Below the pieces are notes generated by a model. That model worked only from the letters and a program-made list of their open reading frames with translations, was not told the DNA's origin and did not search any database. From an uncultured Thermococci archaeon (GTDB lineage: Archaea > CAYQAE01 > CAYVLA01): a DNA stretch of 31,405 nucleotides. Of the stretch, positions 5,684 through 27,964 are shown one piece after another (the first letter of the stretch is position 1; each line of letters begins with the position of its first letter). The DNA lies in assembly GCA_964549615.1 (NCBI GenBank), contig CAZJVP010000087.1:1-31405 (forward strand). The letters are read 5' to 3'. A program made the position numbers and the translations under genes.

Positions 5684-8611
5684 ATGGCAACCAGACTCCT
5701 TTCGCTCGATGGGGAATGGCAACTGGCCGTCGACCCCAACAACGTGGGAATTGAGAGGAAATGGTGGAAAAGGCCGGAGCAGGGGCAGCGACCCGCCCGC
5801 GTCCCTGGAATCATCCAGGAGGCTTTCCCCGCATACCACGGAGTCGCCTGGTACCGGCGGACATTCAGATGCCCCCGACATCCAGACGAACAAGGACGGT
5901 TCCTCTTGCGATTCTGGGCAGTCGACTACCTCTGCGATGTGTGGCTAAACGGCGTGCACGTTGGAGGCCACGAAGGTGGGGAGACGCCCTTCGAGCTGGA
6001 TGCCACCGATTCGATCAAGCCCGGCGGCATCAACCATCTGGCAGTGCGCGTCCTGAACCCGACAAACCACCCGATCGATGGGATGACGCTTGGGCAGACT
6101 CCCCACAGGAACAAGTCCATCCCGCCCCTTCCGGGGAGCTCCTACAACTACGGCGGCATCACGGAATCCGTGGAGCTGCTGCTGGTCCCAGCCGTGCGCG
6201 TGGAGGACGTGTTCGTCAGGCCGGACATCAAGACCGGCGGGGTGAGAGTCCAAGTCACTGTGCGCAACTTTACGAAAGCTACCCGAAAGGTCGCCATCCA
6301 GATCTGCCTATCTCCGGCTGCTGGGGGAATAACGCTCACATCCACCCAGGTCGAGTGCAGGGCGAAACCTGAGGATACGGTAGCCCTGGCAGAACTTCGG
6401 CTTGACAGGCCCCGCCTGTGGCAACTTCACGATCCCTATCTTTACAGCGCGACGGTTCGCCTGTGGCTCGATCCTAAGCGGATCATCGACGAGCGCTCCG
6501 TGCGGTTCGGCTTCCGCGACTTCCGGGTCGTGAACGGCTTCTTCCATCTCAACGGGAAGAGGATCTTCCTGAAGAGCGCCCATACCGGCAACCACTGCCC
6601 GATTGGGCAGATCGTCTCTCCCGCAGCAGCCCCGGACCTATTGCAACGGGACCTCATCTACGCAAAGGCCTGCGGACTGAACGCAGTCAGGTTCATCGCC
6701 GGCGCGGCCCACCCCTGGCAGCTGGACTTGTGCGATGAGATCGGACTGATGGTTTACGAGGAGTCCCTGGCGAGCTGGTGCTTGGAAGACTCGCCCAATA
6801 TGGCCGAACGGTTCGACCGATCGGTGGCCGAGATGATCCGTCGTGACAGGAACCATCCTTCCGTTGTCATCTGGGGCCTTCTGAACGAAACCCGCGATGG
6901 CCCCGTGTTCCGGCATGCCGTCGAGGCCTTGAAGCTGGTCCGGTCCCTGGACGACACCCGCCTAGTCCTGTTGGGTAGCGGACGGTGGGACGGACAGTTC
7001 AACATCGGCTCCGTCAGCAATCCAGGAAGCGACCGATGGGAGTGCGTCTGGGGAATGGAGGATCCCAGCTACAGCACGCCCTTCGCTTGGGGATCTGGCG
7101 GATACGCGAAGAACGCGGGCGATGCCCATATCTACCCCTCGACGCCCCAGACTCCCGAGGCAAACAACCTGATTAGGACCCTCGGCAAGGACGCGAAGCC
7201 GGTCTTCCTCTCGGAATACGGCATCGGGAGTTTGCTTAACGCCATCCGCGAGCTCAGATTCTACGAGCAGGCGAAGGCCAATCCGGAGCTGGAAGACGCG
7301 TGCCTGATGCGTTCCATGGCGGAGAGCCTGATCGCCGACTGGAAACGCCTTGGCATGCAGGCGGCCTATCCCTTCCCCGAGGACATGCTGCGCGACAGCC
7401 AGAGGCTTCACTGCCGACAGCGGTTGCTCGGCTTTGACCTCATCCGATCGAACCCGAAGATCTGCGGCTTCAATGTGACCGGGATGCTTGACCACGGCAT
7501 GACGGGCGAGGGGCTTTGGACGTTCTGGAGGGAGTGGAAGCCGGGCATCGCCGATGCGCTTTCCGACGGCTGGGCACCGCTTCGATGGTGCACCTTCGTG
7601 GAGCCCATGCACGGCTACTCGGGGCAGGCCTTCAGGATCGAGGTCGTGCTGGCAAACGAGGACGTGCTCCCTGCGGGGAAGTACCCCGTGACGGTCAAGA
7701 TCTTCGGGCCGGATGGGCCGGCATGGGAGAAGCACGTGCTCGCGCATATACCCACGCTTAGGGTCGGGGAGCTTGCACCGCTGGCCCTCACCATTCTGCT
7801 TGAAACGGTCGTCCTCAAAGGACCGCCGGGCAGATACGAGCTGCGCGTTTCGATGGATGCAGGCGGAGCTCCGGCAGGCGGAAGGCTGACGTTCTATCTC
7901 TCCGATCCCCGGTCCCTGCCCCGTGTGAAGGCCGCCGTGGGCACCTGGGGTATCGATGAGCGCGTCACAGCGTGGCTTCGATCTCACGGAGTGTCCTGCC
8001 AGAGCTTCCCATCCTCCCGCGGCTCCACCCGAGTGATCTTGGTGGGAGATCCGCCTGCCAACGAGAAGACGGCGGATAACTGGCGAACTCTGGCGGGGTG
8101 CGTGGCTAGGGGTGCCGTGGCGATCTTCACCTCGCCAAAGGCCTTCCGCAGGGGCGAGGACGGAGTTGGCTGGCTGCCCCTCCCAAAGAAAGGCAGATAC
8201 TACGAGTTCGGCGATTGGCTCTACCACAAGGAATGCGTGGCGAGGCCCCACCCAATACTCCAGGGATTGCCGGACAGAGGCACCATGGACTGGGACTACT
8301 ACGGCCCCGTGATCCCGCACGGGTTGTTCGCCGACCAAGAGACCCCCGACGAGGTCGTTGCAGCGGCATTCGCACTTGGATACCCGTGTCCCGGCGGCTA
8401 TGCGTCCGGCATCCTCGTTGGCGTTTACAGGTTCGGCCAAGGGAGGTTCATAGTGAACACGCTCAATGTCCTAGACAACCTGGATGCGCATCCAACTGCG
8501 GACCGAATCCTCTTGAACATGGTCAGCTACGCCAGCCAGAACGCGCTTCCATCCCCGTCCGACCTGCCTCCCGGCTTTGAAAGGCTACTGGCCGACATCG
8601 GGTATGAGTAG
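5684..8611 (+). CDS. Glycoside hydrolase family 2 (beta-galactosidase/beta-glucuronidase-like), cytoplasmic
   Basis: LSLDGEW, VAWYRRTF, VWLNG..VGGHEGG.TPFE, FGFR, LDLCDEIGLMV, RDRNHPSVVIWGLLNE (acid/base Glu) and PVFLSEYG (nucleophile Glu); extra C-terminal domains. Confidence 0.92.
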   Translation: MATRLLSLDGEWQLAVDPNNVGIERKWWKRPEQGQRPARVPGIIQEAFPAYHGVAWYRRTFRCPRHPDEQGRFLLRFWAVDYLCDVWLNGVHVGGHEGGETPFELDATDSIKPGGINHLAVRVLNPTNHPIDGMTLGQTPHRNKSIPPLPGSSYNYGGITESVELLLVPAVRVEDVFVRPDIKTGGVRVQVTVRNFTKATRKVAIQICLSPAAGGITLTSTQVECRAKPEDTVALAELRLDRPRLWQLHDPYLYSATVRLWLDPKRIIDERSVRFGFRDFRVVNGFFHLNGKRIFLKSAHTGNHCPIGQIVSPAAAPDLLQRDLIYAKACGLNAVRFIAGAAHPWQLDLCDEIGLMVYEESLASWCLEDSPNMAERFDRSVAEMIRRDRNHPSVVIWGLLNETRDGPVFRHAVEALKLVRSLDDTRLVLLGSGRWDGQFNIGSVSNPGSDRWECVWGMEDPSYSTPFAWGSGGYAKNAGDAHIYPSTPQTPEANNLIRTLGKDAKPVFLSEYGIGSLLNAIRELRFYEQAKANPELEDACLMRSMAESLIADWKRLGMQAAYPFPEDMLRDSQRLHCRQRLLGFDLIRSNPKICGFNVTGMLDHGMTGEGLWTFWREWKPGIADALSDGWAPLRWCTFVEPMHGYSGQAFRIEVVLANEDVLPAGKYPVTVKIFGPDGPAWEKHVLAHIPTLRVGELAPLALTILLETVVLKGPPGRYELRVSMDAGGAPAGGRLTFYLSDPRSLPRVKAAVGTWGIDERVTAWLRSHGVSCQSFPSSRGSTRVILVGDPPANEKTADNWRTLAGCVARGAVAIFTSPKAFRRGEDGVGWLPLPKKGRYYEFGDWLYHKECVARPHPILQGLPDRGTMDWDYYGPVIPHGLFADQETPDEVVAAAFALGYPCPGGYASGILVGVYRFGQGRFIVNTLNVLDNLDAHPTADRILLNMVSYASQNALPSPSDLPPGFERLLADIGYE

Positions 8612-8758
8612 GCAGACCACGCGAGTCAGGCTGCCGTCCATCCCGACGGTCGGTCTCCCTCGCGCATGAGCCACCTGTCCTGCGTCCTGGCCGCCACAAG
8701 CCGGATATCCGAGGACGCAGATAAATACCGATGCAATTCAACTTCAGGACGGGATACC

Positions 8759-9805
8759 GTGAAGGCAGCAAGGCTCTACGGCCCGGGCGACATCAGGATC
8801 CTCGATGTGGAAACGCCCAAGCCTGGCCCGCATGATCTGCTATGCAGGGTGGTGAGGGCCGGCATCTGTGGGACGGACCACTCCATCTTCTCCGGGAGGT
8901 TCGTCGGCGTCAGGGATGGCTCGGTCAAGTTCCCCATGACGCCCGGGCACGAATGGTCGGGAGTCGTAGTGAGCGCCGGAGCCTCGGTCACCGGATTCGA
9001 GCCGGGCAACAGGGTGGTCGGAGACACTGCGGTCTCGTGCGGAACGTGCTACGAGTGCCTCATGGGCCAGTACTCGCGGTGCCGAAGAGGGCGGGCCGTC
9101 GGCACACTGAATGCCTGGGACGGCGCGTGGGCCGAGTACATCCTGATGCCCGCCCGGCACGTCTTTCACGTCCCCGGCGCCGTCAGCTACGACAACGCAG
9201 CCATGGCCGAACCCGCCGCAACCGCCCTTCACGCCGTGACGCAGGCCGGGGTCGAACCAGGCGACGCGGTTCTGGTGTTTGGCTCGGGCACAATCGGCAT
9301 CGCTGCAGCCAAGCTCGCCAAACTGTCGGGCGCCGCGAGGCTTGTGGTGGTCGGCAGAAGGCGGTTCAAACTTCGCGTAGCATTGCGCCTAGGTGCCGAC
9401 GGAATCATCAACACCACAGAGACATCCCTGAAGGAGGGCCTGATGCATCAGTTCGGCAGCCAGGAGGTCGACAGGGTGATCGAGGCATCAGGATCGGTCG
9501 ATCTTCTGAGGGCCGCGCTGGACATCGTCCGCACCGGAGGATCAGTAGCAACGGTGGCCTTCTACGACTCAAGAATGGACGGCCTCGACATAGATCGCGT
9601 CGTCCTCAGGGGAGTAACAATCAAAGGGGTGTCGGGCAGCCTGGGGATGTACCGACCGATACTGCAGCTAATGGACTGCGGCATGCTAGATCTTGCCCCG
9701 CTGATCACGGCAAGGCTGACCCTGGATGATCTTCCCGCCGCCCTCTCCCAAAGCAAGGCGGGCGGCAGAGGGATCAAGTCCATGATCGACATCAGTGAAC
9801 CATGA
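8759..9805 (+). CDS. Zn-dependent medium-chain alcohol/polyol dehydrogenase
   Basis: GICGTD, PGHEWSG, structural Zn motif CGTCYECLMGQYSRC and GSGTIG Rossmann motif. GTG 8759 preferred over ORF start 8666 because of TATA-like GATAAATAC at 8720-8728. Confidence 0.92.
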   Translation: MKAARLYGPGDIRILDVETPKPGPHDLLCRVVRAGICGTDHSIFSGRFVGVRDGSVKFPMTPGHEWSGVVVSAGASVTGFEPGNRVVGDTAVSCGTCYECLMGQYSRCRRGRAVGTLNAWDGAWAEYILMPARHVFHVPGAVSYDNAAMAEPAATALHAVTQAGVEPGDAVLVFGSGTIGIAAAKLAKLSGAARLVVVGRRRFKLRVALRLGADGIINTTETSLKEGLMHQFGSQEVDRVIEASGSVDLLRAALDIVRTGGSVATVAFYDSRMDGLDIDRVVLRGVTIKGVSGSLGMYRPILQLMDCGMLDLAPLITARLTLDDLPAALSQSKAGGRGIKSMIDISEP

Positions 9806-10254: not shown

Positions 10255-11490
10255 ATGGACGCGACTAGGCAAGCCCTCCTGATCTCATTCTTGACGCTGC
10301 TAGCAACGCTTGCGTCCGCGGACCTGGCTGTCGCACAGAACCGAACCGGCATCGTCAGGGTGCTCTACATCGGGGAACCCTTTGCCATCTGCCAACCGGC
10401 TCAAATCATGGCTTCCGAGCCCCTCACCGATCTGACCAAGATCGAGGCATCGTTGTGGATAGGCACGACGGCCGCGGTGATGAGGTCGTTGAGGATGTAC
10501 ATGCCGCGCAGCTACGCCGACGTAGTGGCAAAGTACGATGCGGTGGTGATCAGCGACGCAAACGTGCAGATCTTCGAACACAAACACATCGTCTGGATGG
10601 CGGACAGCGTGGAGAAGGACGGGCTGGGGCTCTTCATGCCCGGCGGATATGAGGGACTTGGAGGCTTTCGCGCAAATCCGTCTTGGGGTCCGACCAAGGT
10701 CGGGGAGATCCTGCCGGTCATAGTTTATGATCAGGGATTCTATCTTGAACAGCCAATGGCCGTTGACATCCCCTCCCTGAAGATGGACGACCCCTTCATC
10801 AGGAGCCTGCCCTGGGACACCCTGGTAAGCCCCTACAACATCTTCGGCCAGGGCGGAGGCATGAACCAGATGACCCAGAAGGATGGGAGCATCCTGCTCG
10901 GGAACCTGAAGAGGTTGAAGGATGGTTTCATAATACCGTGGCTCGTCTACTGGGACATAGGCAAGGGGCGATCTTTGGCCATGAGCGCCGACTGGTCTGG
11001 CGCCGGGACGGGCCTGTTCGGCTACTGGGATTACTTCGGCGACTTCGTGACAGGACTCATGCTCCATATCGCGCAGAGGAAGATCCCCGACGACTACCAG
11101 CTCCTACACAACACGAGGGTCAAGTACGTCGAGTACGCAGAGAAGAAGAGCCTCGTGCTATCGCTCCTCGACTTCATTGACAAGTTCGGCGCCAACCCAC
11201 GGCCCGTGGAGGCCAAGATCGCCGAGGCGGATGAGTACAGAAAGGCCGCGAGCCGCGACTACATTTCCTACGAGTTCGACCTTGCCCTCGACGGCGTGAC
11301 CCGAGCCCTAAGGGTCCTTGGCGAATCGACAGACCTCGCCTTCAGGCTCAAGGACAGCGCGTTCTTCTGGGTCTACGTGACCGAATGGTCGGCGGTGTCC
11401 GGCACGTTCGTCCTCGCCGGCTCCATCGTGTACTCGCTCATGATCCGAAGGAGGATGTACAAAGGGGTCGTGACGACCAAGCTACGCTAG
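10255..11490 (+). CDS. Uncharacterised secreted, C-terminally anchored protein with class I glutamine amidotransferase-like domain (family A, copy 1)
   Basis: Signal peptide, VRVLYIG, RMYMPRS, YDAVVISD, GLFMPGG, GKGRS, LDFIDKFGAN, C-terminal TM WVYVTEWSAVSGT. Clear paralog of 19860-21080. Confidence 0.85.
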   Translation: MDATRQALLISFLTLLATLASADLAVAQNRTGIVRVLYIGEPFAICQPAQIMASEPLTDLTKIEASLWIGTTAAVMRSLRMYMPRSYADVVAKYDAVVISDANVQIFEHKHIVWMADSVEKDGLGLFMPGGYEGLGGFRANPSWGPTKVGEILPVIVYDQGFYLEQPMAVDIPSLKMDDPFIRSLPWDTLVSPYNIFGQGGGMNQMTQKDGSILLGNLKRLKDGFIIPWLVYWDIGKGRSLAMSADWSGAGTGLFGYWDYFGDFVTGLMLHIAQRKIPDDYQLLHNTRVKYVEYAEKKSLVLSLLDFIDKFGANPRPVEAKIAEADEYRKAASRDYISYEFDLALDGVTRALRVLGESTDLAFRLKDSAFFWVYVTEWSAVSGTFVLAGSIVYSLMIRRRMYKGVVTTKLR

Positions 11491-13335: not shown

Positions 13336-14550
13336 TCACCGATGCGGGGTCCTGTCCAACTCCAGAGCGATTATCGTGTCGATCTCGTCCCTTGCCGACT
13401 CGGGTACATCCATCGTTTCGCGATCCCCGACGCGGCCCTGCGGGACGGAACCCCCGTGCAACAAGGATGCCGATCTGACCCGGGCGGCTAGGCCCTCCAG
13501 CTCCAGCCTGCCTCCCCGCCAATCCGTCAGGTGAAGATAGGCCTTTCGAGCCCTGAAGACGGCGTAACCCCAGGCCGGCGGCGGGATGCCTAGCGGGCGC
13601 GTTCCGTAGATGGACTCGCCGTTCAACTCAAGCCATGCCCCGATCTTCCGGAACCGCTCGGCCTGTTCGGGCTGTATCCCGCCGCTCCCCATGGGAGCGA
13701 GGTTCAGTAGGTAGTTGCCCCCCAGCCCGACGATCGCGACGAGCTTGCGTATGAGCTGCTCAGCGGACTTGAAGTTCCTGTCGCTCTCCTTGTACTCCCA
13801 TGAGTCGTTCACGGTGTCGCAAACCTCGAACGGCCAATTGTCGGGCCCTGGCGTCGGCATCGGCCGCGGATCCCCTTCCCCCTCGTCGTTCAGCCAGCCC
13901 ATCTCGCCTGGGAGAGTTGGAACCGACCTCTCGCACTCATAGAAGTCCCTTCCCATGACGAGGGCCTGAGGCTGCAGCTTTCGGATCATCTCGACGGCTT
14001 GGGTGACGTGGTAAGGGTAGTCATGCCCATGCCACGGCCCCGGGTCGAGCCAGAAGCCCGCAATCCGACCGTAGTTCGTGCAGAGCTCACGTATCTGGCC
14101 CTGGTAGAAGCGCACGTAACGCGCCCATTCATGGGGATGGCCCGGCTTGAACGCGGGATGGTGGAGGTCCGGGAGGGAGTAGTAAAGGAAGAGCGGCATC
14201 CCCTGGACACGGCACTCCTCGGTAAGCAGCTTGACGAAATCGCGTCCTGCCGGCGAGTTGGGGGAACTGAAATCGGTAAGCCGGGTCGAAAACAGGCAGA
14301 AACCGTTGTGGTGCTTGGCGGTGAAGGTGATGTACCTGGCACCGGCCTGCCGTGCCAAGCCCACCCATAAGCGAGCGTCGAACTCCTCGGCGGTAAACTG
14401 CTTCATTGCATCCTCCGGGCATGCCCAGTTTTTATGGCCGGTAGGAAGCGAAAACAGGCTCCAGTGTATGAACATGCCGAACTTGGCATCCTTGAAATGT
14501 TGCTGCTCGCGCGTCAACGGCGGCGGTGCGCATAACTTTGGGCCCACCAA
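13336..14550 (-). CDS. Alpha-L-fucosidase family (GH29)
   Basis: DAKFGMFIHW, FDARLWV..A..AGARY, TAKHHNGF, GQIRELCTNYG, FWLD (nucleophile Asp), GGNYLLN and NGESIYGTRP. Start likely TTG 14550 or GTG 14547, because the ORF start at 14736 overlaps the divergent gene. Confidence 0.9.
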   Translation of the reverse strand: MVGPKLCAPPPLTREQQHFKDAKFGMFIHWSLFSLPTGHKNWACPEDAMKQFTAEEFDARLWVGLARQAGARYITFTAKHHNGFCLFSTRLTDFSSPNSPAGRDFVKLLTEECRVQGMPLFLYYSLPDLHHPAFKPGHPHEWARYVRFYQGQIRELCTNYGRIAGFWLDPGPWHGHDYPYHVTQAVEMIRKLQPQALVMGRDFYECERSVPTLPGEMGWLNDEGEGDPRPMPTPGPDNWPFEVCDTVNDSWEYKESDRNFKSAEQLIRKLVAIVGLGGNYLLNLAPMGSGGIQPEQAERFRKIGAWLELNGESIYGTRPLGIPPPAWGYAVFRARKAYLHLTDWRGGRLELEGLAARVRSASLLHGGSVPQGRVGDRETMDVPESARDEIDTIIALELDRTPHR

Positions 14551-14584
14551 GCTAACCCCATCTGCTTTCCCCGCACATTCATAA

Positions 14585-16609
14585 GTGCCACCGTCCGCGA
14601 TCCCGCCGGAGCAAAGGACCATGCTTGTGATGTTCAGGATCAGCCCAGCGCACTGGCTCAAAGACGAGAACCTCAAGGGCCTCGTGGATTTCCTCAGACA
14701 GCACCGCAGGCTGGTGGATGAGCTTGCGTTCTTCACGCATCACACGCACGCCCCGCTGCCGCTTGAGGAAATGAAGACCCGGTTCGAGCGGCTCGAATCG
14801 GTGATGATGCTGGTTCGAGAGCAGTTGGGAGTGAGGGCGGGCATCAACGTGATTGCAACAATGGGGCACCACGAAGAGAACCTGGAGGCATCGCTCGATG
14901 AACCTTGGCAACGCGTTGTGGACGAGAATGGCAAGGTCTGCAGAGGTACGTTTTGCCCCGGCGATCCCAGGTTCCAAAGGTACGTCAGCATGCTATACAC
15001 GCTTGCCGCCAGGGCCCGGCCTGACTTCATCTGGGTCGACGACGACGTGAGGATGGCCGGACACATGCCCGTGGCGAAGACGTGCTTCTGCAGGCGTTGC
15101 GTGGCGCGGTTCGCGCAGGAGACGGGCCGAACCCTCACGCGCCGAAAGCTCGTCGCAGCGCTGAACGGCTCCGCCAAGAAGGACCCCATCGACCTAAGGA
15201 GGCTGTGGCTGGAGCACAACAGAAGCATGATCGAGGAGCTCCTCGCCATCGTCGAAAAGGCCGTTCACGCGGTGGACCCGTCATTGCCGATCGGGTTCAT
15301 GACCGGAGACCGATTCTACGAGGGCTATGCCTTCCGGCGATGGGCCAAGGCCCTATCCGGCCCGAACCGTGTCGAGGTGCGCTGGCGCCCGGGCGGAGGT
15401 TTCTACTGGGACGATCGCCTCATCGGGCTCGTCGAGAAGGCCCACGATGTCGGCCGACAGGTGGCCGCCCTGCCAGGCGATGTCGGCGTGGTGCAGTCCG
15501 AGATCGAGAACTTCCCCTACCAGCGCCTGAGGAAGAGCGTGCACGCGACCATGGTCGAGGCCGCGGCCCACGTGGCTGCAGGGGCATCCGGCATTGCCTT
15601 CAACGTGCTCTCGATGTTCGCCGAGCCATTGGATGAGTACTCTCCTTTCTTGGAGGCTCTTCACTGGGCGCATCCCTTCTTCGAGGAGATCCAAAAGCAG
15701 GCGGGCCGCACCCCGGCAATGGGCATCTGCCCTGCGTGGAACGAGGACCTCTTCGCCGCGAACGGCCGCCGGGGCGCATGGTTTGACCGGCCAAGCGTCA
15801 TCGATGCCCTTCAGAAGCAGTACGTCTTGGCCGAGATCGGGCTGCCCATCTGCTATGAGCCGGGCCGCGCCCAGGTTGCCACGTTTTCGGGCAACACGCC
15901 TCGAGCCTTTGGCAAGCACGAGCTGGAAAGCTTCCTGGGCAAAGGGGTATACCTTGATGTGGCCGCTTGGCATGCCTTGGATCAGTTGGGCCTCTCCGGA
16001 CTGACCGGCGTGCGCCCAGTTGGGACGATCGATCACGACGCCACCGAGGTTTTCACCAACAACCCGATCAACGTAGGATGCGCCGGCAGGCAGCGCGACT
16101 GCCGACAGTCCTTCTGGCCGGAGGCCGCCTACAGCCTCGAGCCCACCGTGCGGCATGTTCAGGTCCTAGCGGAAATCGTTGACTACATGGGTCGCCCGCT
16201 CGGGCCGTGCCTGACGGCATATGAGAACGAGCTTGGCGGGAGGGTCGTGGTCGCGGGCTACTATCCCTGGTTCATGATCCACAACGAGGCCAAATCCGCT
16301 CAGCTGAAGCGAATCTTCGATTGGTTGAGTTTCGACCGTCTTCCGGCAGTCGTGCAGAGCTTCGACAAGGTCGTCATCTGGGTTCGCAACGCAATGGACC
16401 GGCCTGCAATCATCATGATCAACGCCTCGTTGGATCCCGTCAAGCGCCTACTCCTCACAGTGCGTCCTGGCGCGGATAGCTACGAGGTCATCCCAATGCG
16501 CGGAGAACGAACCATCATCAAGGCAAAGCACAATGGTTCCAGAACAACCCGCGACCTGATCATCGAGAACGTCGCTCCGTGGAGTGCCTACATGCTCGTC
16601 CCAGCATAG
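14585..16609 (+). CDS. Uncharacterised glycoside-hydrolase-like protein (TIM barrel plus beta-galactosidase trimerisation/GATase-like domain)
   Basis: 674-aa ORF with FCP.DP.F, PDFIWVDDDVRM, CFCRRC, SEIENFPY and YENELGGRVVV; start GTG 14585 or ATG 14621. Confidence 0.7.
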   Translation: MPPSAIPPEQRTMLVMFRISPAHWLKDENLKGLVDFLRQHRRLVDELAFFTHHTHAPLPLEEMKTRFERLESVMMLVREQLGVRAGINVIATMGHHEENLEASLDEPWQRVVDENGKVCRGTFCPGDPRFQRYVSMLYTLAARARPDFIWVDDDVRMAGHMPVAKTCFCRRCVARFAQETGRTLTRRKLVAALNGSAKKDPIDLRRLWLEHNRSMIEELLAIVEKAVHAVDPSLPIGFMTGDRFYEGYAFRRWAKALSGPNRVEVRWRPGGGFYWDDRLIGLVEKAHDVGRQVAALPGDVGVVQSEIENFPYQRLRKSVHATMVEAAAHVAAGASGIAFNVLSMFAEPLDEYSPFLEALHWAHPFFEEIQKQAGRTPAMGICPAWNEDLFAANGRRGAWFDRPSVIDALQKQYVLAEIGLPICYEPGRAQVATFSGNTPRAFGKHELESFLGKGVYLDVAAWHALDQLGLSGLTGVRPVGTIDHDATEVFTNNPINVGCAGRQRDCRQSFWPEAAYSLEPTVRHVQVLAEIVDYMGRPLGPCLTAYENELGGRVVVAGYYPWFMIHNEAKSAQLKRIFDWLSFDRLPAVVQSFDKVVIWVRNAMDRPAIIMINASLDPVKRLLLTVRPGADSYEVIPMRGERTIIKAKHNGSRTTRDLIIENVAPWSAYMLVPA

Positions 16610-16634: not shown

Positions 16635-17540
16635 TCAGGGTTCCGCCACCTCCAACCCCTGCTCCCTGAGGATGTCCTCAAGCTCCCTTACGAGCTGGTC
16701 GGCCTGCGTCTTGAGCCCGGCAAGCGGGTAGGGCCTGTGCAGCCAAGAGTACTTGCCCGCCGAGGCGGGATTGAACGGCAGAAGCGAGATGCGCGTTGCG
16801 CCGAGCTCCAATGCCTTGCGCCCGATCGATGAAACGTCTTGGGGGGAGTCGTTGATTCCCGGGATCAGGGGCACCCGCACGATCACGTCCGATCCGCATT
16901 CCAGAAGCCTTGCCAGATTGTTCAGTATGGGCTTGAGAAAGACGCCGGTATACTGGAAATGCACCGCCGCATCATGGTGTTTCACGTCGAAGAGAAACAG
17001 ATCGGTCACCCCAGTTAACTTGTGAAGCGCCCTCCATGGCGCATAGCCACAGGTCTCTACGGCCGTGTGTATCCCCTTCTCTTGACAGAGATGCAGGACG
17101 GCGTGGGAGAAGTCGGCCTGCAGCAATGGCTCGCCGCCGGTCAAGGTGATGCCCCCTCCCGACTGCTTGAAGAAGGGCAGAAGCCTCTCCGCATGCCCGG
17201 CCACCTCGTCCGCGCTCACAAGTTCCCCCTTGATCTCCAGCGCCCCCCTCGCACAAGCCCGAATGCACTCTCCGCACAGGCGGCAGCCGCTCCTGTCCCG
17301 CGGGTCGTTGGGATCCTTGCTGCGCAGTCCCATGGGGCAGGCTTCAACGCACCTGCCGCACTTGGCGCACCTGGTCTCGTACCAGACGACCTCAGGCTTG
17401 GCCGAAACGGACTCGGGGCTGTGACACCACACACAGCGCAGCGGGCAGCCCTTGAGGTACACGGCCATGCGCAGGCCAGGCCCATCGTGGGCCGCCATCT
17501 CGTCCAGGGCAAAGATCAGGCCCTTGGCTGGAGTGCTCAT
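16635..17540 (-). CDS. Glycyl-radical enzyme activating enzyme (radical SAM) with ferredoxin-like insert
   Basis: HDGPGLR, KGCPLRCVWCHSPES (CxxxCxxC), two CxxCxxCxxxC motifs, GGITLTGGEPL, HTAVETCG and RVPLIPGIND; ATGA overlap with the GRE stop. Confidence 0.95.
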   Translation of the reverse strand: MSTPAKGLIFALDEMAAHDGPGLRMAVYLKGCPLRCVWCHSPESVSAKPEVVWYETRCAKCGRCVEACPMGLRSKDPNDPRDRSGCRLCGECIRACARGALEIKGELVSADEVAGHAERLLPFFKQSGGGITLTGGEPLLQADFSHAVLHLCQEKGIHTAVETCGYAPWRALHKLTGVTDLFLFDVKHHDAAVHFQYTGVFLKPILNNLARLLECGSDVIVRVPLIPGINDSPQDVSSIGRKALELGATRISLLPFNPASAGKYSWLHRPYPLAGLKTQADQLVRELEDILREQGLEVAEP

Positions 17541-19738
17541 ATCTCCATTTCCGTCCTTGCGATGACGTCCTCCTGCGCATCCGGCGAGAGCAAGGTGAAG
17601 GGGACGAGGTAGCCGCCGATCCGCACGAGTAGGTCGGCGTAGTCCTCCGGATGCTTCTGCGCGTCCCTGAGGACCTCCGAGCTGGTCACGTTGATCTGCA
17701 CCATATAGATGCCGAGGCCGAACGCCGTCTCTATCAGGCTTTTCAAGCGCTCTATCCCCGCCTCGGTCTGCAGCGCGTTGGGGGACAGGCGCAGGTTGAA
17801 CACGATCCCACCGAGACCCCTGGATTGATCAAGGCCGATTGTGGACAGGAGCATGGAGAGCGCGCCCTTCAGGCGGACTCCGGTGCAGGCCCCGACGGTG
17901 TTGGCTAGGGGTGTCCCGGCCCTGCGGCCGTCCGGGGTGGCGGGCGTCTCGCGGCCAAAACCGATCCATATCGTCCAGCCGAGGAAGCCCGGGAAGACCG
18001 GCCCGCCGTAGAAGTTGCGATGGCCCTCGATCGCGGAACACCACCTGCCCGAAACCTCGGCGAAGAGCCGGTTGATCCACTCGACGTCGTTGCCATGCTT
18101 TGGGCAGTCAAGCACATCCCGCCTCAGATCCTCGTAGCCCTCGAAGTCGACAAGAATCGCCTGCCTGAAATCCTCAAGGCTGTACCTTCCCTGCTCCTCC
18201 ACGAGGACCTTGATGGCGGCAAGGCCGTCCACGACGTTGGAGATGCCGACGGCCTCCGGCTGAAGGAAGTTGTACAGCGCGCCTCCGTGCGAGATGTCCC
18301 TCCCGCTCTCCATGCAGCCCTGCACGAAACAGGAGAGAAGCGGGAAGGGACGGTACCACGACTCGACAAGCTGGTCCCTGATCCCTGCCGCGATTGCCTC
18401 GTGGGCTGCATAGTCCAGCTGTCTGAGGAACGCCTCCTTGAGCTCGGCGAAGGTCTGTGGAATCCCCGTGTCCGGCCTGTCCTGCGTTCCCTTGGTCGGG
18501 TGCCGGCCGCCGAACATCGCGTACAGAAGGGACATCGGTATGTTCACATACGGCCACGCCACCCAGGGATTCGTGCGCCCCTGGATCGAGGTCTCGGTGC
18601 AGGTGCTCGGTAGGTGCTCGACGGCATGCTCGTACGGTATGCCGTACCGGACGAGCCCCTTGATCACGAGATCCGTGTTGAAGAAGGACGGCTGGCCCAT
18701 CCCGTTTCGCAGCAGCCGACAGGCACGGCGCATGAACTCCGGATCGATGTCCTTGTGCCAAAACACATCTGCACCCGGGAAGTAGACCCTCGTCCTGTCG
18801 CAGATCTCGAGGCATTTGTAGCTCAGCTCGTTGGTCGCATCGCTGCCGTCCGGGTTACGGCCTGCGATGCCTATTATGACGGCGCTCATGCTGCGCCTGT
18901 CGAACTCGTTGCACTTGATGAAGAGCTGCTCGAGAAGGGCGTCCGCCTCCTCCTTATCCCTTTCCGCCTCGTAGAAGGGAAAGAGGTACCGATCTATGTG
19001 GCCCGGACCGAAGCAGTGATGGGAAGTGCCGGCCTCGACGGCGACCGCAAGGAATGTGAACCACACGAGCTGTATCGCCTCCCTGAAGGTTCTGGGAGGT
19101 TGGGACGAGATGTGGTCGCAGACGCCAGCTATGACACGCAGCTGGGCTCGCCAGTCCGGATCCTGGGCGTCTCTCTCAAGCTCTCTAGCCAGCTCCGAGT
19201 AGCGCCGGATGAATCCCTGGAAGGACTCAAGCGATCTTCTGGATGCATTGTACAGCTGAAGCTTCTCGGGGGCCGTAGGATCGGTTGGGTCCACCGCCTC
19301 CTCGAACTCGCTGATGCGCTCCCTGATTCCGTCCAAGCCTAGTCTCAATATGGTCGGGAAGTCGGGCGCCATGTGTCCCTCGGAGGCGTTGCACCAGTAG
19401 TTCTGCTTCGAGAGATACTCCCGAGCCGCCTTCAGCGCCTCCTTCATTCGCTCATCGGGATGCGTATTGGGGTGCCACCCAACGAGGATCTCCCCCTCCC
19501 TGATCGCGATGGGCATGTTCTTTAGGATGTGGGACGTTGCATGCGCCACGCGCGCGATGCGGAAGGGCTCCCCCTCGGTCTGGCGAAAGGCCTCCGCAGC
19601 AAGGAGCGTCCTTTCCTCAAAGCGAGCTGCATCCCTGCGGACGCACTCCCTGAGGTGCGCACACCAGGTCCGCAGCTTGCTTGGTGGCTCCGTCTTCGGC
19701 AAAGCTTGTGCGAGGGAGGACACGCGACACACCGCCAA
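17537..19738 (-). CDS. Glycyl radical enzyme (PFL superfamily), unknown substrate
   Basis: GEILVG, GH..PDF, PPRTFREAIQL, DGSDATNELSY, Cys loop PSTCTE (Cys~380), PKHGND, ATPDGRRAGTPLA, QINV and Gly loop LLVRIGGY (Gly~709). TATA-like TATTAAAAA ~30 nt upstream of the TTG. Confidence 0.95.
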   Translation of the reverse strand: MAVCRVSSLAQALPKTEPPSKLRTWCAHLRECVRRDAARFEERTLLAAEAFRQTEGEPFRIARVAHATSHILKNMPIAIREGEILVGWHPNTHPDERMKEALKAAREYLSKQNYWCNASEGHMAPDFPTILRLGLDGIRERISEFEEAVDPTDPTAPEKLQLYNASRRSLESFQGFIRRYSELARELERDAQDPDWRAQLRVIAGVCDHISSQPPRTFREAIQLVWFTFLAVAVEAGTSHHCFGPGHIDRYLFPFYEAERDKEEADALLEQLFIKCNEFDRRSMSAVIIGIAGRNPDGSDATNELSYKCLEICDRTRVYFPGADVFWHKDIDPEFMRRACRLLRNGMGQPSFFNTDLVIKGLVRYGIPYEHAVEHLPSTCTETSIQGRTNPWVAWPYVNIPMSLLYAMFGGRHPTKGTQDRPDTGIPQTFAELKEAFLRQLDYAAHEAIAAGIRDQLVESWYRPFPLLSCFVQGCMESGRDISHGGALYNFLQPEAVGISNVVDGLAAIKVLVEEQGRYSLEDFRQAILVDFEGYEDLRRDVLDCPKHGNDVEWINRLFAEVSGRWCSAIEGHRNFYGGPVFPGFLGWTIWIGFGRETPATPDGRRAGTPLANTVGACTGVRLKGALSMLLSTIGLDQSRGLGGIVFNLRLSPNALQTEAGIERLKSLIETAFGLGIYMVQINVTSSEVLRDAQKHPEDYADLLVRIGGYLVPFTLLSPDAQEDVIARTEMEI

Positions 19739-19859: not shown

Positions 19860-21080
19860 TCAGACGTTGAACCTCGTGGACGCCACCGGTTTGTAGGCAG
19901 CCTTCCTGACCATGAGGGTCCACAGCACGGCCCCGCTGAACATCGCAGTGCCGCTCACCGTGAACCACTCGATGACGTAGACCCAGACCAGGGCCTGGTC
20001 CTTCGCATCGATCGCAAGGTCGGCAGCCACCTTGATGCTGCTGAGGGCCTCATCGAGGGCGGACAGGCTGGCCTCGTATTCTCCCTGGATGTAGAGCTTG
20101 ACCATCTCCTTCCTCAAATCGTCGGACTTCTTCAGCTCGGCCTCGGCCTTCTTCAGGTTGGCGCCGAACTTCTCGGCGAAGTCCAGGACCGAAACGGTGA
20201 AGGACCTGCTGGAGTAGAACCCCGTCAGCTTCCTCCGTAGCTCCAGGAACATGGATGTGTCCTCGGGTATCTCCACCCTAACCGAGTAATAGATCAGGTT
20301 GCTCAAAACCAGTGGGGCGTAAGCCCACCTGTGGAAGTCCTGCGGGCCGTTGCCGCCCCAGTCGAAGACGAATGCCTCGCTCCTCCCCTTCCCCATGTCC
20401 ATGTACATCAGGATCGGCGAGCCGGGAGGGTTGCGATCGCTGCGCCCCACGACCACGCTGCCCTCCCTCTCTCCCACCCTCTGCTGGTTGAACAAGAAGA
20501 CCTGGCCCCAGGGTATCTTCCTCACCAGCGGATGATCTTCATAGCCTTCGGTTGGCACGAGATGGTAGGCCCTGCCGAGGTCGTAGAACTCCGGTATGCA
20601 CTTACACGGCAGGATGTCCGCGACGGGGGAGGGATCCCAGCTGGGATGGCCCCACGCCGGGTAACCTCCGAACGTCTGCGGCCCTCCCGCCATCAGGAAG
20701 CCCTGCCCGCCATCGATGACGGCCGACTTTATCCAGTTCTGCAACTTGGCCGGGAAGAATGGCTCCCGGGCGTCGGCGATGATGATCATGTCGAAGTCCT
20801 CATTCAACCTTTTCTCGGTACGGGGAATGTACATCCTGAGCCTGGCCGCCGCCTCCTCGATCGAAAGGTATGCACCCGTGATGAACTCGACCGGTACCGG
20901 GCTGAGCTTGACAAGCGGGTCCTGCGCGATGATCGGGGTGACGAAGCCGGCCTCCATGAGGGAATCCCCCATATACAAAACCCTGATCAGGCCGGTCTGG
21001 GGGTCAACCCTTGGCTGCGCCCAGACGGAGGCGGGCAGAACAAGTGCGAAGACCAAGGAAGCCAACGCCGTCCTTGTCAT
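19860..21080 (-). CDS. Uncharacterised secreted, C-terminally anchored GATase-like protein (family A, copy 2)
   Basis: Signal peptide, IRVLYMGD, RMYIPRT, GFLMAGG, GKGRS, LDFAEKFGAN and WVYVIEWFTVSGT TM; SD GGAGAGG. Confidence 0.85.
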   Translation of the reverse strand: MTRTALASLVFALVLPASVWAQPRVDPQTGLIRVLYMGDSLMEAGFVTPIIAQDPLVKLSPVPVEFITGAYLSIEEAAARLRMYIPRTEKRLNEDFDMIIIADAREPFFPAKLQNWIKSAVIDGGQGFLMAGGPQTFGGYPAWGHPSWDPSPVADILPCKCIPEFYDLGRAYHLVPTEGYEDHPLVRKIPWGQVFLFNQQRVGEREGSVVVGRSDRNPPGSPILMYMDMGKGRSEAFVFDWGGNGPQDFHRWAYAPLVLSNLIYYSVRVEIPEDTSMFLELRRKLTGFYSSRSFTVSVLDFAEKFGANLKKAEAELKKSDDLRKEMVKLYIQGEYEASLSALDEALSSIKVAADLAIDAKDQALVWVYVIEWFTVSGTAMFSGAVLWTLMVRKAAYKPVASTRFNV

Positions 21081-21322: not shown

Positions 21323-21865
21323 TTACCTCTTACAGAATGGGCCTTCCAAGCAATAGACCGTGAGTCTTCCCTTTCGTGGGCACTTCGCGGCCAAGTCGCA
21401 TCTCGGACACAGCCGGGAAACGTCCTCCACATCGAGGGTACCCATCTGTTCGTGCAAGGCATAGAGGAGTTTGAGGTACTTCCCCTCCGCTATTCTAGGT
21501 ACCTCGTTCCGGCGGTCCAGCCCGTACCATTCGTACAGCCGCCTATCTCCCTTCGAGGAGTTGCATGTCCTGCAGACCCACACCGCGTTGTCAGGCGAAT
21601 CAGGCCCGCCCCTACACCTTGGTAGGATGTGCTCCAGGGTTAGGTCCCTTCTGCCTCCGCAGTAGATGCAGTTCTCCGGTCTCTCCCGCTCCTTTATGTA
21701 CTCCCTGATCGAGCTTGACCAAGAGATCTCTCCGAGGGCGAGCTTCCTGAACCTGTTCATCACGAACGCATACTGTCGCTTTCCGGCGCCCGCGGACTCA
21801 GAGATGATCTTTGCATACTGCCAATAGATCAAGTCTCGAATCGTCCTGACTGCAGGCGGCGGCAT
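21323..21865 (-). CDS. HNH endonuclease
   Basis: CIYCG...LTLEHILPRCRGG.D..DN....CRTCNSSKG; additional C-terminal Cys cluster; SD GGAGG. Confidence 0.9.
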   Translation of the reverse strand: MPPPAVRTIRDLIYWQYAKIISESAGAGKRQYAFVMNRFRKLALGEISWSSSIREYIKERERPENCIYCGGRRDLTLEHILPRCRGGPDSPDNAVWVCRTCNSSKGDRRLYEWYGLDRRNEVPRIAEGKYLKLLYALHEQMGTLDVEDVSRLCPRCDLAAKCPRKGRLTVYCLEGPFCKR

Positions 21866-23573: not shown

Positions 23574-23695
23574 GCTTGGATGAGATCAGGCCGAACTGTA
23601 AAATGTGTTCTCGCCAGAAACGTCCGTCCCAAGCAGGCATCACTTGGCGAATCCCGCATGAGGAGCTTTATCTAGGTGGCCTCCCACCAACAAGC

Positions 23696-25321
23696 ATGTC
23701 CAATTTCAGCCTTAGATCTTGCGGCATCGTTCCCCCGCACGATCCCATTCCCGCCGAACGCCGTGCGGCGCAGGAGCTCCAAGACTGGATCGGGAAGATC
23801 GCTGGAAGCCCCCCGAAGATGCTGGAGAGCAAACGAGGCAGGTGCATCATCCTCCGATACTCGCCCGACCTGGGATCAGAGGAGTTCTCGATAGTGCTCA
23901 GGAAAGGAGACATCATCATATCTGGCGGCCGGCCGAGGGGGGTGCTCTACGGCACCTACGAGCTTCTTGACCGGTTCGCCGGGATCAGGTGGGTTGCGCC
24001 TGACGAAACCATCCTCCCGTCCGATCGGTCGGAGATAACGATCCCCTCCGAGGGCTTCTCCTTCTCGCCGAGGCTGGCCTACAGGGAGCCCTTTTTCACC
24101 GAGGCGTTTGATGGCGACTGGGCAGCAAGGAACCGGATGAACTCCCACTTCGCAAGGCTTACGGATATCCACGGGGGCAAGGTTACCTACGAAGGCTTCG
24201 TCCACACCTTCAACCTCCTCGTCCCGCCGGCGGAGTTCTTCAGCTCCCATCCCGAGTACTTCTCGGAGATCGATGGAAAGAGGATTGCGGAGAAGACCCA
24301 ACTGTGCCTCACGAACCCGGACGTCGTGCGCATAGCCGCCGAGCGGGTCATGTCATGGTTCAAGAAGAACCCGAACGCCAACATAGCCTCTGTCAGCCAG
24401 AATGACTGGTCCAACGCCTGCCAATGCCCCAACTGCTCCAAGGTGGATGAAGAGGAAGGATCCAAGGCGGGTTCGCTGCTGCATTTCGTCAACCAAGTGG
24501 CGGAGATCGTCGAAAAGGAGTTCCCTGACAGGTGGATCGACACCATCGCCTACCAGTACACCAGAAAGCCCCCTGCAAACGTAAGGCCTAGGAGGAACGT
24601 CATCGTCCGTCTCTGCAGCATCGAATGCTGTTTCTCCCACCCTCTGGCTAGCTGCCCCGAGAATGAGAGCTTCAGAAGGGACACCCAGGGCTGGGCAAGG
24701 GTCGCCCATACATTATACGTCTGGGACTACGTCACCAACTTCGCGCACTACATCATGCCCTTTCCCAACCTCAGGGTTCTCCAGCCCAACGTTCGATTCT
24801 TCGTCCAGAACAACGTGAAGGGCATATTCGAGGAGGGGAACTACTCGCCAGGAGGAGGCGGGGAGTTCGCGTCCTTGAGGTCCTACCTTCTTTCCAGGAT
24901 ACTTTGGGAGCCGGAATGCGATGTGGGCAAAGCCCTGGAGGAGTTCACGTCCGCCTACTACGGCCGCGCCGAGGCTGGAATTCGGACCTATATCGAGCTC
25001 CTGCATGACCGCGTTGACGAAGGCAAGCTTCACGTGAGGATATTCGACAGGCCCGACCGGTTCCTCGATCTTCCGTTCGTAGACGATTGCCTGTCCATCT
25101 TCGACGATGCCGAAGCCGTAGCTGCGGAGGCCCGCCACAAGCAACGCGTCCGGCTCGCCAGGCTTCCCCTGACCTACTCGAAGATCTTCCTGATGGACCC
25201 CTCCGACCCAGCCAGGAAGGCGCTGCTCCAGGACTTCCTCAAGGAGTGCAGATCGTTCGGCATCACCAACATTTCCGAGGCCAAGACCATCGAACGGTTC
25301 GCGCAAGAGAACCTGGCCTGA
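23696..25321 (+). CDS. DUF4838 domain protein (GH20/GH67-like N-terminal domain; putative glycoside hydrolase)
   Basis: GGRPRGVLYGTYELL, FVHTF..LVPP..FF..HPEYF, QLCLTNP, SVSQND, CQCPNC, AYQYTRKPP and VWDY. ATG 23696 lies ~25 nt after TTTATCTA. Confidence 0.88.
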   Translation: MSNFSLRSCGIVPPHDPIPAERRAAQELQDWIGKIAGSPPKMLESKRGRCIILRYSPDLGSEEFSIVLRKGDIIISGGRPRGVLYGTYELLDRFAGIRWVAPDETILPSDRSEITIPSEGFSFSPRLAYREPFFTEAFDGDWAARNRMNSHFARLTDIHGGKVTYEGFVHTFNLLVPPAEFFSSHPEYFSEIDGKRIAEKTQLCLTNPDVVRIAAERVMSWFKKNPNANIASVSQNDWSNACQCPNCSKVDEEEGSKAGSLLHFVNQVAEIVEKEFPDRWIDTIAYQYTRKPPANVRPRRNVIVRLCSIECCFSHPLASCPENESFRRDTQGWARVAHTLYVWDYVTNFAHYIMPFPNLRVLQPNVRFFVQNNVKGIFEEGNYSPGGGGEFASLRSYLLSRILWEPECDVGKALEEFTSAYYGRAEAGIRTYIELLHDRVDEGKLHVRIFDRPDRFLDLPFVDDCLSIFDDAEAVAAEARHKQRVRLARLPLTYSKIFLMDPSDPARKALLQDFLKECRSFGITNISEAKTIERFAQENLA

Positions 25322-26674: not shown

Positions 26675-26857
26675 CAGTAAGGTTCCCTTGCGCCCAGTCC
26701 TTTCGGACCACGGCGAGCTCCTAGCCAACCCTTCGTGGAAAGGCAGGCACGCCTTAGCGGGCCATGAAGCGTTGGCGCTGGTACCGTGGGCGGAGTTCTG
26801 GTCGGAATGCATGCAGCCGTGCGTAGGATATGTGAGAGGCGCCGCTCCCAAGAGAGC

Positions 26858-27964
26858 TTGGAACCCAAGGAACGCGTTCGAATAGCCCTTGACCACAGGG
26901 AGCCCGACCGGGTGCCCATAGACTTCTGGGCGGTCGAGGAACTTACAGGGCGGCTCTTGCGAGCCTTGGGCATGACGAACGAGGAGGAGATGCTGGAGGC
27001 ATTCGGGGTCGATTTCAGGGTGATCCGGGGCCCCAGCCTCTCTGGCCTGAAACTCGAGCGGTACGCGGACGGAAGTTTCAGGGATTTGTGGGGCGTGGTG
27101 AGGCGCCCCGTGTCGTTCGGCCGGGGCACCGCTAGGGGAAGGTACATGGAGGTCGCGTTTTCGCCACTCGGGCACATGAAGACGGTCGAGGAGGTCGAGA
27201 ACTACGAGCATTGGCCGTCTCCGGACTGGTGGGACTACTCCAATGTGAAGCAGGAGTGCAGGGAACACGAGGATTACTGCGTCGTGTTCGCGGGGGACAG
27301 GCTGGACCGCACTGCACAGCTTAAGACCGCGATGTACATGCGCGGGATGAAGGAGATCCTCACCGACCTTCGGAGGAACCCGGAGATAGCGAAGTGCATC
27401 TTCCAGCACGTGGCCGAGTACTTCCTGGAGTACAACCGGCGCGTGTTCGAAGCGGCCGACGGCCTCATAGACATCTTCATGATGGGCGACGATTTCGGCA
27501 CCCAGAACGGTCCAATGATGCCCGATGATCTTTGGGCCGAATTCCTCGAGGAGGGGTTCAGGGAGTTCATACGCCTCGCCCACGAGTACGGAATCCTGGT
27601 TATGCACCACACCTGCGGGTCCGTGCGTACGCTCATCCCGGCGTTCATACGGGATGGGCTCGACATCCTGCAATCGCTACAGCCCCGCGCCAAGGGAATG
27701 GATCTTGGATCCCTCAAGAAAGACTTCGGCCAACAGATATCCTTTCATGGCTCAATCGACGTACAGCATACGATGCCGAGAGGAACCGAGGCGGATGTCA
27801 GAAGAGAGGTCGCCGACCGAATGGCGGCGGGCAAGCCCGGGGGAGGCTTCGTCATATGCACGGCCCACAACCTGCAGGTTGACGTGCCGACCAAGAACGT
27901 GCTCGCCTTGGTCGAGTCGTACCATGAGCTGGGCGGATACGGGGAAGGTTCGGCGCAAGGATAG
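26858..27964 (+). CDS. Uroporphyrinogen decarboxylase / MtaA-CmuA methyltransferase family protein
   Basis: N-terminal PKERV..ALDHREPDRVPIDF, MGDDFGTQ, MHHTCGS, SFHGSIDVQ and AHNLQ; start TTG 26858 (ORF open from 26786). Confidence 0.88.
   Translation: MEPKERVRIALDHREPDRVPIDFWAVEELTGRLLRALGMTNEEEMLEAFGVDFRVIRGPSLSGLKLERYADGSFRDLWGVVRRPVSFGRGTARGRYMEVAFSPLGHMKTVEEVENYEHWPSPDWWDYSNVKQECREHEDYCVVFAGDRLDRTAQLKTAMYMRGMKEILTDLRRNPEIAKCIFQHVAEYFLEYNRRVFEAADGLIDIFMMGDDFGTQNGPMMPDDLWAEFLEEGFREFIRLAHEYGILVMHHTCGSVRTLIPAFIRDGLDILQSLQPRAKGMDLGSLKKDFGQQISFHGSIDVQHTMPRGTEADVRREVADRMAAGKPGGGFVICTAHNLQVDVPTKNVLALVESYHELGGYGEGSAQG

Follow-up and report, generated by a model that had tools for sequence, protein, structure and literature searches.

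The 31,405-nucleotide contig CAZJVP010000087.1 of assembly GCA_964549615.1, assigned to an uncultured Thermococci archaeon and referred to here in its full length as the window, carries on its minus strand a gene pair for a glycyl radical enzyme (GRE) and its activase. The GRE gene (17537..19738) is an open reading frame (ORF) of 733 codons with a TTG start, and its product matches the Pfam families PF02901 (429.1 bits, cut-off 24.3) and PF01228 (78 bits, cut-off 22.2). The true start may be a GTG five codons downstream, which would give 728 amino acids (aa), the length of the 100%-identical database cluster P0003. The activase gene (16635..17540, 301 aa) encodes a GRE-activating radical S-adenosylmethionine (SAM) protein that scored 294.2 bits against the NCBIfam model TIGR02494 (GRE activase, cut-off 174.35). 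A 4-base ATGA overlap, read directly in the sequence, joins the two genes, which are translationally coupled. In the activase translation, CPLRCVWC is followed by two CxxCxxCxxxC motifs within a ferredoxin-like insert (residues 51-100; 17241..17390, minus strand); besides Radical_SAM, the families Fer4, Fer4_6, Fer4_7 and Fer4_9 matched, the Fer4 matches lying across these residues. The ORFs, the overlap, the Pfam matches and the two cysteine motifs confirm the original prediction, made from the letters of the window, of a 733-aa GRE coupled to an activase with a double [4Fe-4S] insert.

The GRE was modelled with AlphaFold2 from a 55-sequence family alignment. The model was confident (pLDDT 90.8, pTM 0.91) and superposed on solved GREs with TMq values of 0.85-0.90 at 23-29% identity (Foldseek). 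Modelling of structure and pocket had been proposed with the prediction; the GRE fold was secured in this way, and the pocket was assigned by sequence alignment. With barrel and glycine-radical domain, active-site loops and cognate activase all present, the protein belongs to the GRE superfamily. The pair reads as an intact, working two-gene GRE/activase module.

The Cys loop, HLPSTCTE (18593..18616, minus strand; residues 375-382), holds the predicted catalytic residues Cys380 and Glu382 and aligns with Cys433/Glu435 of glycerol dehydratase (GD). This loop (S-T-C-T-E) lacks the adjacent Cys-Cys of pyruvate and ketoacid formate lyases. The Gly loop, VRIGGYLVPF (17597..17626, minus strand; residues 705-714), aligns with RVAGY of GD and reads R706-I-G-G709-Y710, with Gly709 as the predicted radical site; the preceding residue, usually Ala, Ser or Cys in GREs, is here a Gly. 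Two further segments belong to the putative pocket: His240-His241-Cys242 (19013..19021, minus strand), in a strand aligned to GD Gly280-His281-Ser282, and the strand PGFLGWTIW (17963..17992, minus strand; residues 583-591), aligned to GD residues 637-645 (PGLYPSSIN). All six motifs quoted in the prediction were found at the residues given, the remaining four starting at residues 238 (TSHHCF), 246 (GHIDRY), 391 (PWVAWPY) and 585 (FLGWTIW).

A word-indexed search listed 120 clusters at 52-100% identity to the GRE, from metagenome-assembled genomes labelled Armatimonadota, Planctomycetota, Desantisbacteria, Latescibacteria, Brocadiia and Theionarchaea in the sources. There the proteins carry no closer name than 'pyruvate formate lyase family', 'formate C-acetyltransferase' or hypothetical. 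An exhaustive search of 50%-identity representatives returned one match at 878 bits and the next at 483 bits and 39% identity. We used an alignment of the 120 family sequences to score conservation. Cys380 and Glu382 were present in 120/120 members, His122 in 118/120 and Gly709 in 119/120, the sole miss being a gap. The pocket positions were as constant: His240, Cys242, Phe585, Leu586, Trp588 and Trp591 were each found in all 120 sequences and Ala394 in 119/120, with His241 in 93/120. Elsewhere, Arg463 (118/120), Arg640 and Glu495 (119/120 each) were conserved.

These counts change the emphasis of the original prediction, which had described the active-site loops as non-canonical. With Cys380, Glu382, Gly709 and His122 kept in 118-120 of the 120 members, that description was overstated. 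Neither the TCTE-like Cys loop nor the Gly-Gly Gly loop is peculiar to the family, since [ST]-C-[VT]-E and R-V-G-G-Y loops also occur in neighbouring compact clades. GHIDRY, presented as a departure from the usual motif, is limited to the sublineage of the window (His247 in 15/120, Arg250 in 14/120); the usual R...Q was found in 104/120 and GHIDRY is not a family trait. A GH-x-C motif (GHGCFC or GHHCFC) is common to the sister clade P0123-P0128. Signatures found only in the family were LPSTCTETS, NPWVAWPY, QPE, PGFLGWTVW, RGLGG..FN.R and GGYLVPF. Judged by sequence, the distinctive part of the enzyme is its pocket, with His240/Cys242, Trp588/Trp591 and Ala394, and the loops are only mildly unusual.

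Correspondence with GD was read from a HMMER alignment with hand-counted residues. In this alignment His122 matches GD His164, Cys380 matches Cys433, Glu382 matches Glu435 and Gly709 matches Gly763. The residues around them differ: Cys242 stands for Ser282, Val393 and Ala394 for His446 and Asp447, Leu586 for Tyr640, Trp588 for Ser642 and Trp591 for Asn645, and a 9-residue deletion removes the GD loop that holds Tyr339. From the 1R9D literature we take Ser282, Tyr339, Asp447 and Tyr640 to be glycerol contacts; in their place the GRE has Cys242, the deleted loop, Ala394 and Leu586, and these replacements are near-invariant in the family. The enzyme thus keeps the radical relay and acid-base pair of the dehydratases, with the substrate-holding residues exchanged for an aromatic and hydrophobic set and a His/Cys pair.

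The GRE scored far under every curated NCBIfam cut-off. Against TIGR01774 (PFL2/glycerol dehydratase subfamily) it reached 453.7 bits (cut-off 678.2), compared with ~694-910 bits for the representatives P0139, P0198, P0210 and P0217, which served as labelled rows of the tree described below. Scores against the functional equivalogs were 334.9 for HypD (cut-off 1100), 303.7 for CutC (1050), 319.7 and 300.7 for HpfG and HpsG (1000), 318.5 for the PflD-type NF007437 (1109), 223.9 for indoleacetate decarboxylase (1100) and 188.7 for 4-hydroxyphenylacetate decarboxylase (1150), so that every one of these cut-offs lies three- to six-fold above the score of the GRE. Against TIGR01255 (pyruvate formate lyase, PFL) it reached 77.5 bits (cut-off 994.2), more than 10-fold short. 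Leaving P0113 aside, there were 149 representatives, of which 128 were also scanned at E <= 1e-200, with fragments and P0262-P0271 excluded. P0240 passed the HypD cut-off and P0210 nearly passed that of HpfG (974 versus 1000), and no representative shorter than 760 aa among the 128 had an NCBIfam match at this threshold. In a phmmer search against solved structures, GD (1r8w) came first with 357 bits, followed by 1,2-propanediol dehydratase (PD, 5i2a; 327), HypD (312), YbiW (305), Archaeoglobus fulgidus PFL2 (301), CutC (298) and PflD (291). PFL reached only 69 bits, and decarboxylases, X-succinate synthases and PFL all scored far lower than the eliminases and isomerases. The family profile and Foldseek (TMq 0.89 to 1r8w) gave the same order of solved relatives.

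A FastTree phylogeny was built from 157 rows: the query, 12 family members spanning the identity range, the 141 representatives that reach 640 aa (leaving out 8 shorter ones), and Escherichia coli YbiW, PflD and PflB. These three E. coli proteins are the named sequences; other characterised types, such as PD and CutC, enter through NCBIfam-labelled representatives, GD itself has no labelled row, and A. fulgidus PFL2 was not placed. The 13 family rows grouped in a single clade (support 100, stem 0.73), nested in a 40-row clade (support 99) made up exclusively of compact proteins of 697-748 aa; FastTree support is to be read with caution, and the separateness of the family also follows from the identity gap. 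The PflD, YbiW and HypD rows and the PD-, CutC- and HpfG-like rows fell in a separate clade of 71 rows. This agrees with the expectation, offered for checking by phylogeny, that the protein would not cluster with a characterised GRE. We noted no characterised member in the 40-row clade (representatives P0123-P0260, family included). Other compact clades (P0123-P0134 and others) resemble the family in length, in the Cys loop, frequently in R-V-G-G-Y and, for P0123-P0128, in GH-x-C; they differ in their identity to the window GRE (<=39%), and the family signatures are not shared. By sequence, then, the GRE is a member of a discrete, uncharacterised compact clade, its members 52-86% identical, with no characterised GRE in its tree cluster. 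The clade did not turn up in literature searches on recent GRE work or on GREs in combination with Theionarchaea, Armatimonadota, Planctomycetota or Bathyarchaeota.

These results bear on whether the protein could be a disguised orthologue of a known enzyme, such as GD or PD, a PFL-type formate lyase or a decarboxylase. GD and PD are its best solved matches, and the fucosidase, rhamnosidase and alcohol dehydrogenase (ADH) genes near family members (see below) would fit propanediol made from 6-deoxy-sugars. We nevertheless regard orthology as very improbable, given scores so far below the curated cut-offs, an identity of at most 29% to any solved GRE (Foldseek), the lack of an adjacent Cys-Cys, the tree, and a PD-like row that shares with the family, in the displayed motif segments, only the catalytic residues His, Cys and Glu and some further conserved positions. 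Because the protein falls short of the cut-offs of GD, PD and YbiW/PflD and lacks their substrate residues, we do not count it as a member of those families, although they are the enzymes that it most resembles in its predicted mode of action. The original statement that the substrate matches none recognised is upheld by the lack of clustering with a characterised GRE and by pocket residues that differ from those of GD and PD. The substrate is predicted to be none of the known GRE substrates.

Comparison with solved enzymes shows what is shared. With GD of Clostridium butyricum (PDB 1R8W/1R9D) and PD of Roseburia inulinivorans (5I2A/5I2G; 9RCO-9RCR) the GRE has in common the ten-stranded barrel (TMq 0.88-0.89), the Cys-x-Glu loop, the radical Gly, the His164 equivalent and a TIGR02494-type activase with a ferredoxin-like insert. 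It differs in being only 26-28% identical and ~55-110 residues shorter, and in a host genome without microcompartment genes. A. fulgidus PFL2 (PDB 2F3O; 776 aa), to our knowledge the only structurally characterised archaeal PFL-like GRE, shares the archaeal host, the fold (TMq 0.89) and 29% identity. Its function is debated, GD and alkylsuccinate synthase being named as possibilities in a 2026 review (PMC13450708). YbiW and PflD are sugar-acting GREs that likewise have CxE and the conserved His. They convert 1,5-anhydroglucitol-6-phosphate and 1,5-anhydromannitol-6-phosphate to 1-deoxyfructose-6-phosphate (PDB 8ID7, 8ID0, 8YJO). Three loci of related GREs (L103, L108 and L111) contain a class II ketose-bisphosphate-type aldolase gene, two of them also a kinase-like gene and an MFS transporter, a set that recalls the transporter, kinase, GRE and aldolase route of YbiW/PflD. 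The differences are that YbiW and PflD lie in another tree clade, that all pocket segments differ, that no phosphotransferase system or aldolase gene stands beside the GRE in the window, and that the aldolase association is limited to 3/35 loci.

According to the same review, CxE is retained in every characterised C-O, C-N and C-S eliminase and in the three isomerases, its Glu forming a hydrogen bond with the substrate (PMC13450708). It also states the catalytic roles of GD Cys433 and Glu435, and has GD His164 protonating the leaving hydroxyl (PMC13450708). The motif that defines this class (PMC13450708) was found as C380-T-E382 in 120/120 family members. By motif definition the GRE falls in the eliminase/isomerase class, the catalysis itself being predicted. 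The original proposal that a retained CxE points to elimination or isomerisation accordingly holds for the motif, and its extension to the reaction is made by analogy. We favour an eliminase/isomerase scheme because the Cys, Glu and His triad is retained and the closest solved relatives are eliminases. In this scheme the activase, with its two auxiliary [4Fe-4S] motifs, would install a glycyl radical on Gly709, and the resulting Cys380 thiyl radical would abstract a hydrogen from a hydroxyl-bearing carbon. Glu382 would deprotonate the substrate hydroxyl to give a ketyl radical, and a vicinal leaving group (hydroxyl, ring or ether oxygen) would depart with His122 assisting as acid. The product radical would then regain a hydrogen to yield an aldehyde or ketone, which NAD(P)-dependent oxidoreductases encoded nearby could process. 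On balance, the enzyme is probably a GRE of the 1,2-eliminase or isomerase type, with a hydroxylated and possibly sugar-derived substrate.

The invariant His240/Cys242 pair and the Trp-rich strand may leave room for different chemistry. Cys242 and His240, placed opposite the Cys loop, could act as a second hydrogen-atom donor or acceptor or as a metal or acid-base site, in a radical epimerisation or another redox-neutral sugar rearrangement new to GREs, in place of a simple 1,2-elimination. Both residues are present in 120/120 members and are common to the sister clade, they align with GD Gly280 and Ser282 (the latter presumably a substrate contact), the GD Tyr339 loop is deleted, and the family lies within a 40-row compact clade that has no characterised member. 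That Cys242 faces the substrate is, however, read from a sequence alignment, a conserved Cys can be structural, and the full eliminase triad of Cys, Glu and His offers the simpler explanation. We consider this alternative quite unlikely. A broader version, in which a Trp-lined pocket with His240/Cys242 supports some radical reaction new to GREs, be it C-O cleavage, dehydration or epimerisation of a glycan-derived molecule (e.g. a 6-deoxy-hexose or some other sugar set free by the fucosidases, rhamnosidases or sulfatases encoded nearby), seems a little less so and is still unlikely. The original proposal of a new GRE class holds in that the clade is discrete and uncharacterised; new chemistry is not established.

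The host assembly comprises 3.21 Mb in 104 contigs, is 99.46% complete and contains a single PFL-like gene. A partial rRNA operon on another contig (C46) was scored archaeal for both the small and the large subunit by Rfam, so the archaeal half of the 'anaerobic archaeon' originally proposed is supported, and 'anaerobic' follows from the oxygen sensitivity of GREs. GATase1-like genes (PF07090) gave 136 matches at E <= 1e-10 over many contigs, and two of them flank the GRE module in the window (10255..11490, plus strand, and 19860..21080, minus strand). The window shares this expanded family, which links its contig to this archaeal bin. In the reference set the host phylum comprises just five genomes; a genome of the same genus has a 74%-identical GRE orthologue. 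Microcompartment shell genes (PF00936) gave 0 matches in the whole assembly and none among the 24 window ORFs scanned, in agreement with the prediction for the window.

Several carbohydrate genes surround the module, and those named in the prediction were confirmed by Pfam: a GH2 glycoside hydrolase (GH) gene (5684..8611, plus strand), a Zn-dependent medium-chain alcohol or polyol dehydrogenase gene (8666..9805, plus strand; PF08240 and PF00107), a GH29 alpha-L-fucosidase gene (13336..14736, minus strand; PF01120, 231 bits) and a DUF4838 gene (23576..25321, plus strand). The best NCBIfam matches of the Zn-ADH were threonine 3-dehydrogenase and scyllo-inosose 3-dehydrogenase, all below cut-offs. 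Convergent with the activase gene lies an ORF for a 674-aa protein (14585..16609, plus strand). It had no Pfam or NCBIfam match; its ESM Atlas neighbours are hypothetical proteins, and the nearest named clusters, putative glycosyl hydrolases, give only a lead. Counted from its first GTG, this ORF shares its first 152 bases (14585-14736) with the 5' end of the divergent GH29 gene, and its true start probably lies further downstream. A uroporphyrinogen decarboxylase (URO-D)-like gene of distant MtaA/CmuA type (PF01208) is located at 26786..27964 (plus strand). The window also encodes a 1333-aa protein whose C-terminal part has WD40/beta-propeller repeats (598..4599, plus strand) and an HNH endonuclease (21323..21865, minus strand). 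The host genome has two class II aldolase/adducin-type genes and two Fe-ADH genes; a fucose isomerase search of the genome gave no match above cut-off.

We compared 67 loci: the window, two loci from genomes of the species, one from the same-genus genome and 63 metagenome loci. ORFs were called with a GC3-guided caller and clustered by BLAST, and one representative per cluster was run through Pfam; in cluster 1, some opposite-strand shadow ORFs still overlie the activase. Context was tallied within +-8 kb of the GRE for the 35 loci that offered 5 kb or more of flank. A glycoside hydrolase, carbohydrate-binding module (CBM), sulfatase, fucose isomerase or class II aldolase gene was found in 15/35 loci, a raw count. 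The families seen were GH29, GH36, GH38, GH106, GH116, GH123, GxGYxYP, DUF2961, DUF4838, CBM96 and ThuA. NAD(P) oxidoreductase genes (Zn-ADH, Fe-ADH, aldo-keto reductase, GFO/IDH/MocA or short-chain dehydrogenase/reductase) occurred in 11/35 loci, and an SSF symporter gene directly followed the activase in 7/35. The 339-354 aa protein encoded after this symporter has secreted beta-propeller or PEP-CTERM proteins as Atlas neighbours and is uninformative on substrate.

Some of these genes hint at 6-deoxy-sugars. GH29 was found in three loci (the window, L087 and L115), a gene resembling fucose isomerase adjoins the activase in L107, and the same-genus locus (L149) carries a GH106 rhamnosidase. 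The Zn-ADH cluster also recurs near the GRE in L093 and L149. The 674-aa protein (BLAST cluster 6) is present in the same arrangement in the window, L087, L125 and L149, the last three being the closest relatives with usable DNA. The 674-aa gene, the Zn-ADH and GH29 are kept only among the closest relatives (74-90% identity), and their conservation may be plain synteny. Sulfatase genes were near the GRE in only three loci, L112, L121 and, beyond 8 kb, L003. These hints weakly point to a glycan-released compound, possibly derived from a 6-deoxy-sugar, as the substrate class.

The same chemistry could serve a substrate that is no carbohydrate, such as a small diol, an amino alcohol, an organosulfonate or an osmolyte, imported through SSF, MFS or ABC transporters encoded nearby, with glycosidase genes as incidental neighbours. 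Such a substrate would fit the 20/35 loci without a carbohydrate-gene label and their mixed contexts, which include electron transfer flavoprotein (ETF) and two-component genes (L004, L101) and purine or housekeeping genes (L128, L134, L146, of which L134 and L146 are archaeal). It would also fit a pocket more hydrophobic than that of GD, which could suit a more hydrophobic, non-sugar molecule. Moreover, the recently found GRE eliminases described in the review all act on small non-sugar molecules (PMC13450708). On the other hand, genes for GHs, sulfatases and sugar isomerases are found repeatedly near the GRE in distant sublineages (45-100% identity), and with just 6 GH29 matches (PF01120) in the 3.2-Mb genome the estimated chance of one lying within 8 kb is ~3%. 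We regard a non-carbohydrate substrate as the less probable alternative.

The hydroxylated, possibly sugar-derived substrate that we favour has to be weighed against several points besides the unlabelled and housekeeping loci and the hydrophobic pocket. The reaction type is drawn by analogy of motifs, and some decarboxylases also keep CxE, so the motif by itself is no proof of elimination. The pocket is assigned from the sequence alignment only. The carbohydrate tally is uncorrected for the background frequency of carbohydrate-active enzyme genes in lineages rich in them, and the 35 loci are not dereplicated, with L098/L099, L117/L118, L133/L140, L108/L111 and L097/L138 sharing gene order. Four of the 35 (L003, L004, L126 and L131) have none of the labelled gene classes. 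Two candidate partners were rejected as non-specific: the GATase1-like flanking genes in view of their 136 matches in the host genome, and the URO-D-like gene, found in 9/35 loci, in view of 38 PF01208 matches there. In the survey of homologue neighbourhoods that the original prediction had suggested, its carbohydrate context was borne out in fewer than half of the tallied loci. The carbohydrate link of the clade is only suggestive.

Other arrangements were observed among the related loci. The URO-D-like gene directly adjoins the GRE or activase gene in L103, L133 and L140. GRE and activase genes are adjacent or are parted by one or two inserted ORFs. A same-strand ORF of ~165 aa separates them in L095 (12281-12895), L123 (1080-1571), L130 (847-1344) and L135 (756-1253), and also in L102 and L105. 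We considered this ORF as a GRE small subunit and rejected it: it has no Pfam match, and its sequence resembles a PIN or VapC-type toxin. By eye it looks like a mobile insertion, of PIN/VapC type, that splits the pair. An unrelated flavodoxin-like ORF (PF12724) lies between the two genes in L146 (12297-12719), on an archaeal contig with thermosome and Ku genes, and its product could plausibly pass electrons to the activase. In L004 (2796-8600) and L101 (2004-9600), ETF alpha/beta-like genes with ferredoxin motifs, an FAD oxidoreductase gene, a GAF histidine kinase gene and a response regulator gene are located directly upstream of the GRE; a response regulator gene is also upstream in L003. 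Some family members, among them those of L104 (9782-12475) and L131 (6923-8944), have an insertion of ~90-120 residues between positions ~180 and 196 of the window protein.

With GREs, anaerobes can carry out chemically difficult reactions that need neither oxygen nor B12, and so far a new pathway has come to light with every GRE clade assigned. The review notes that no function has yet been given to any archaeal PFL-like GRE or to some other clades as a whole (PMC13450708). Uncharacterised GRE clades are common, and this find is a good experimental target rather than a surprise. As the pocket is almost invariant, assigning one member biochemically would carry over to hundreds of sequences. 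Such an assignment could bring to light an anaerobic step by which glycans bearing fucose, rhamnose or sulfate are degraded in sediments and, should the reaction on a glycan-derived molecule prove new to GREs, this would be the first archaeal PFL-like GRE with an assigned function.

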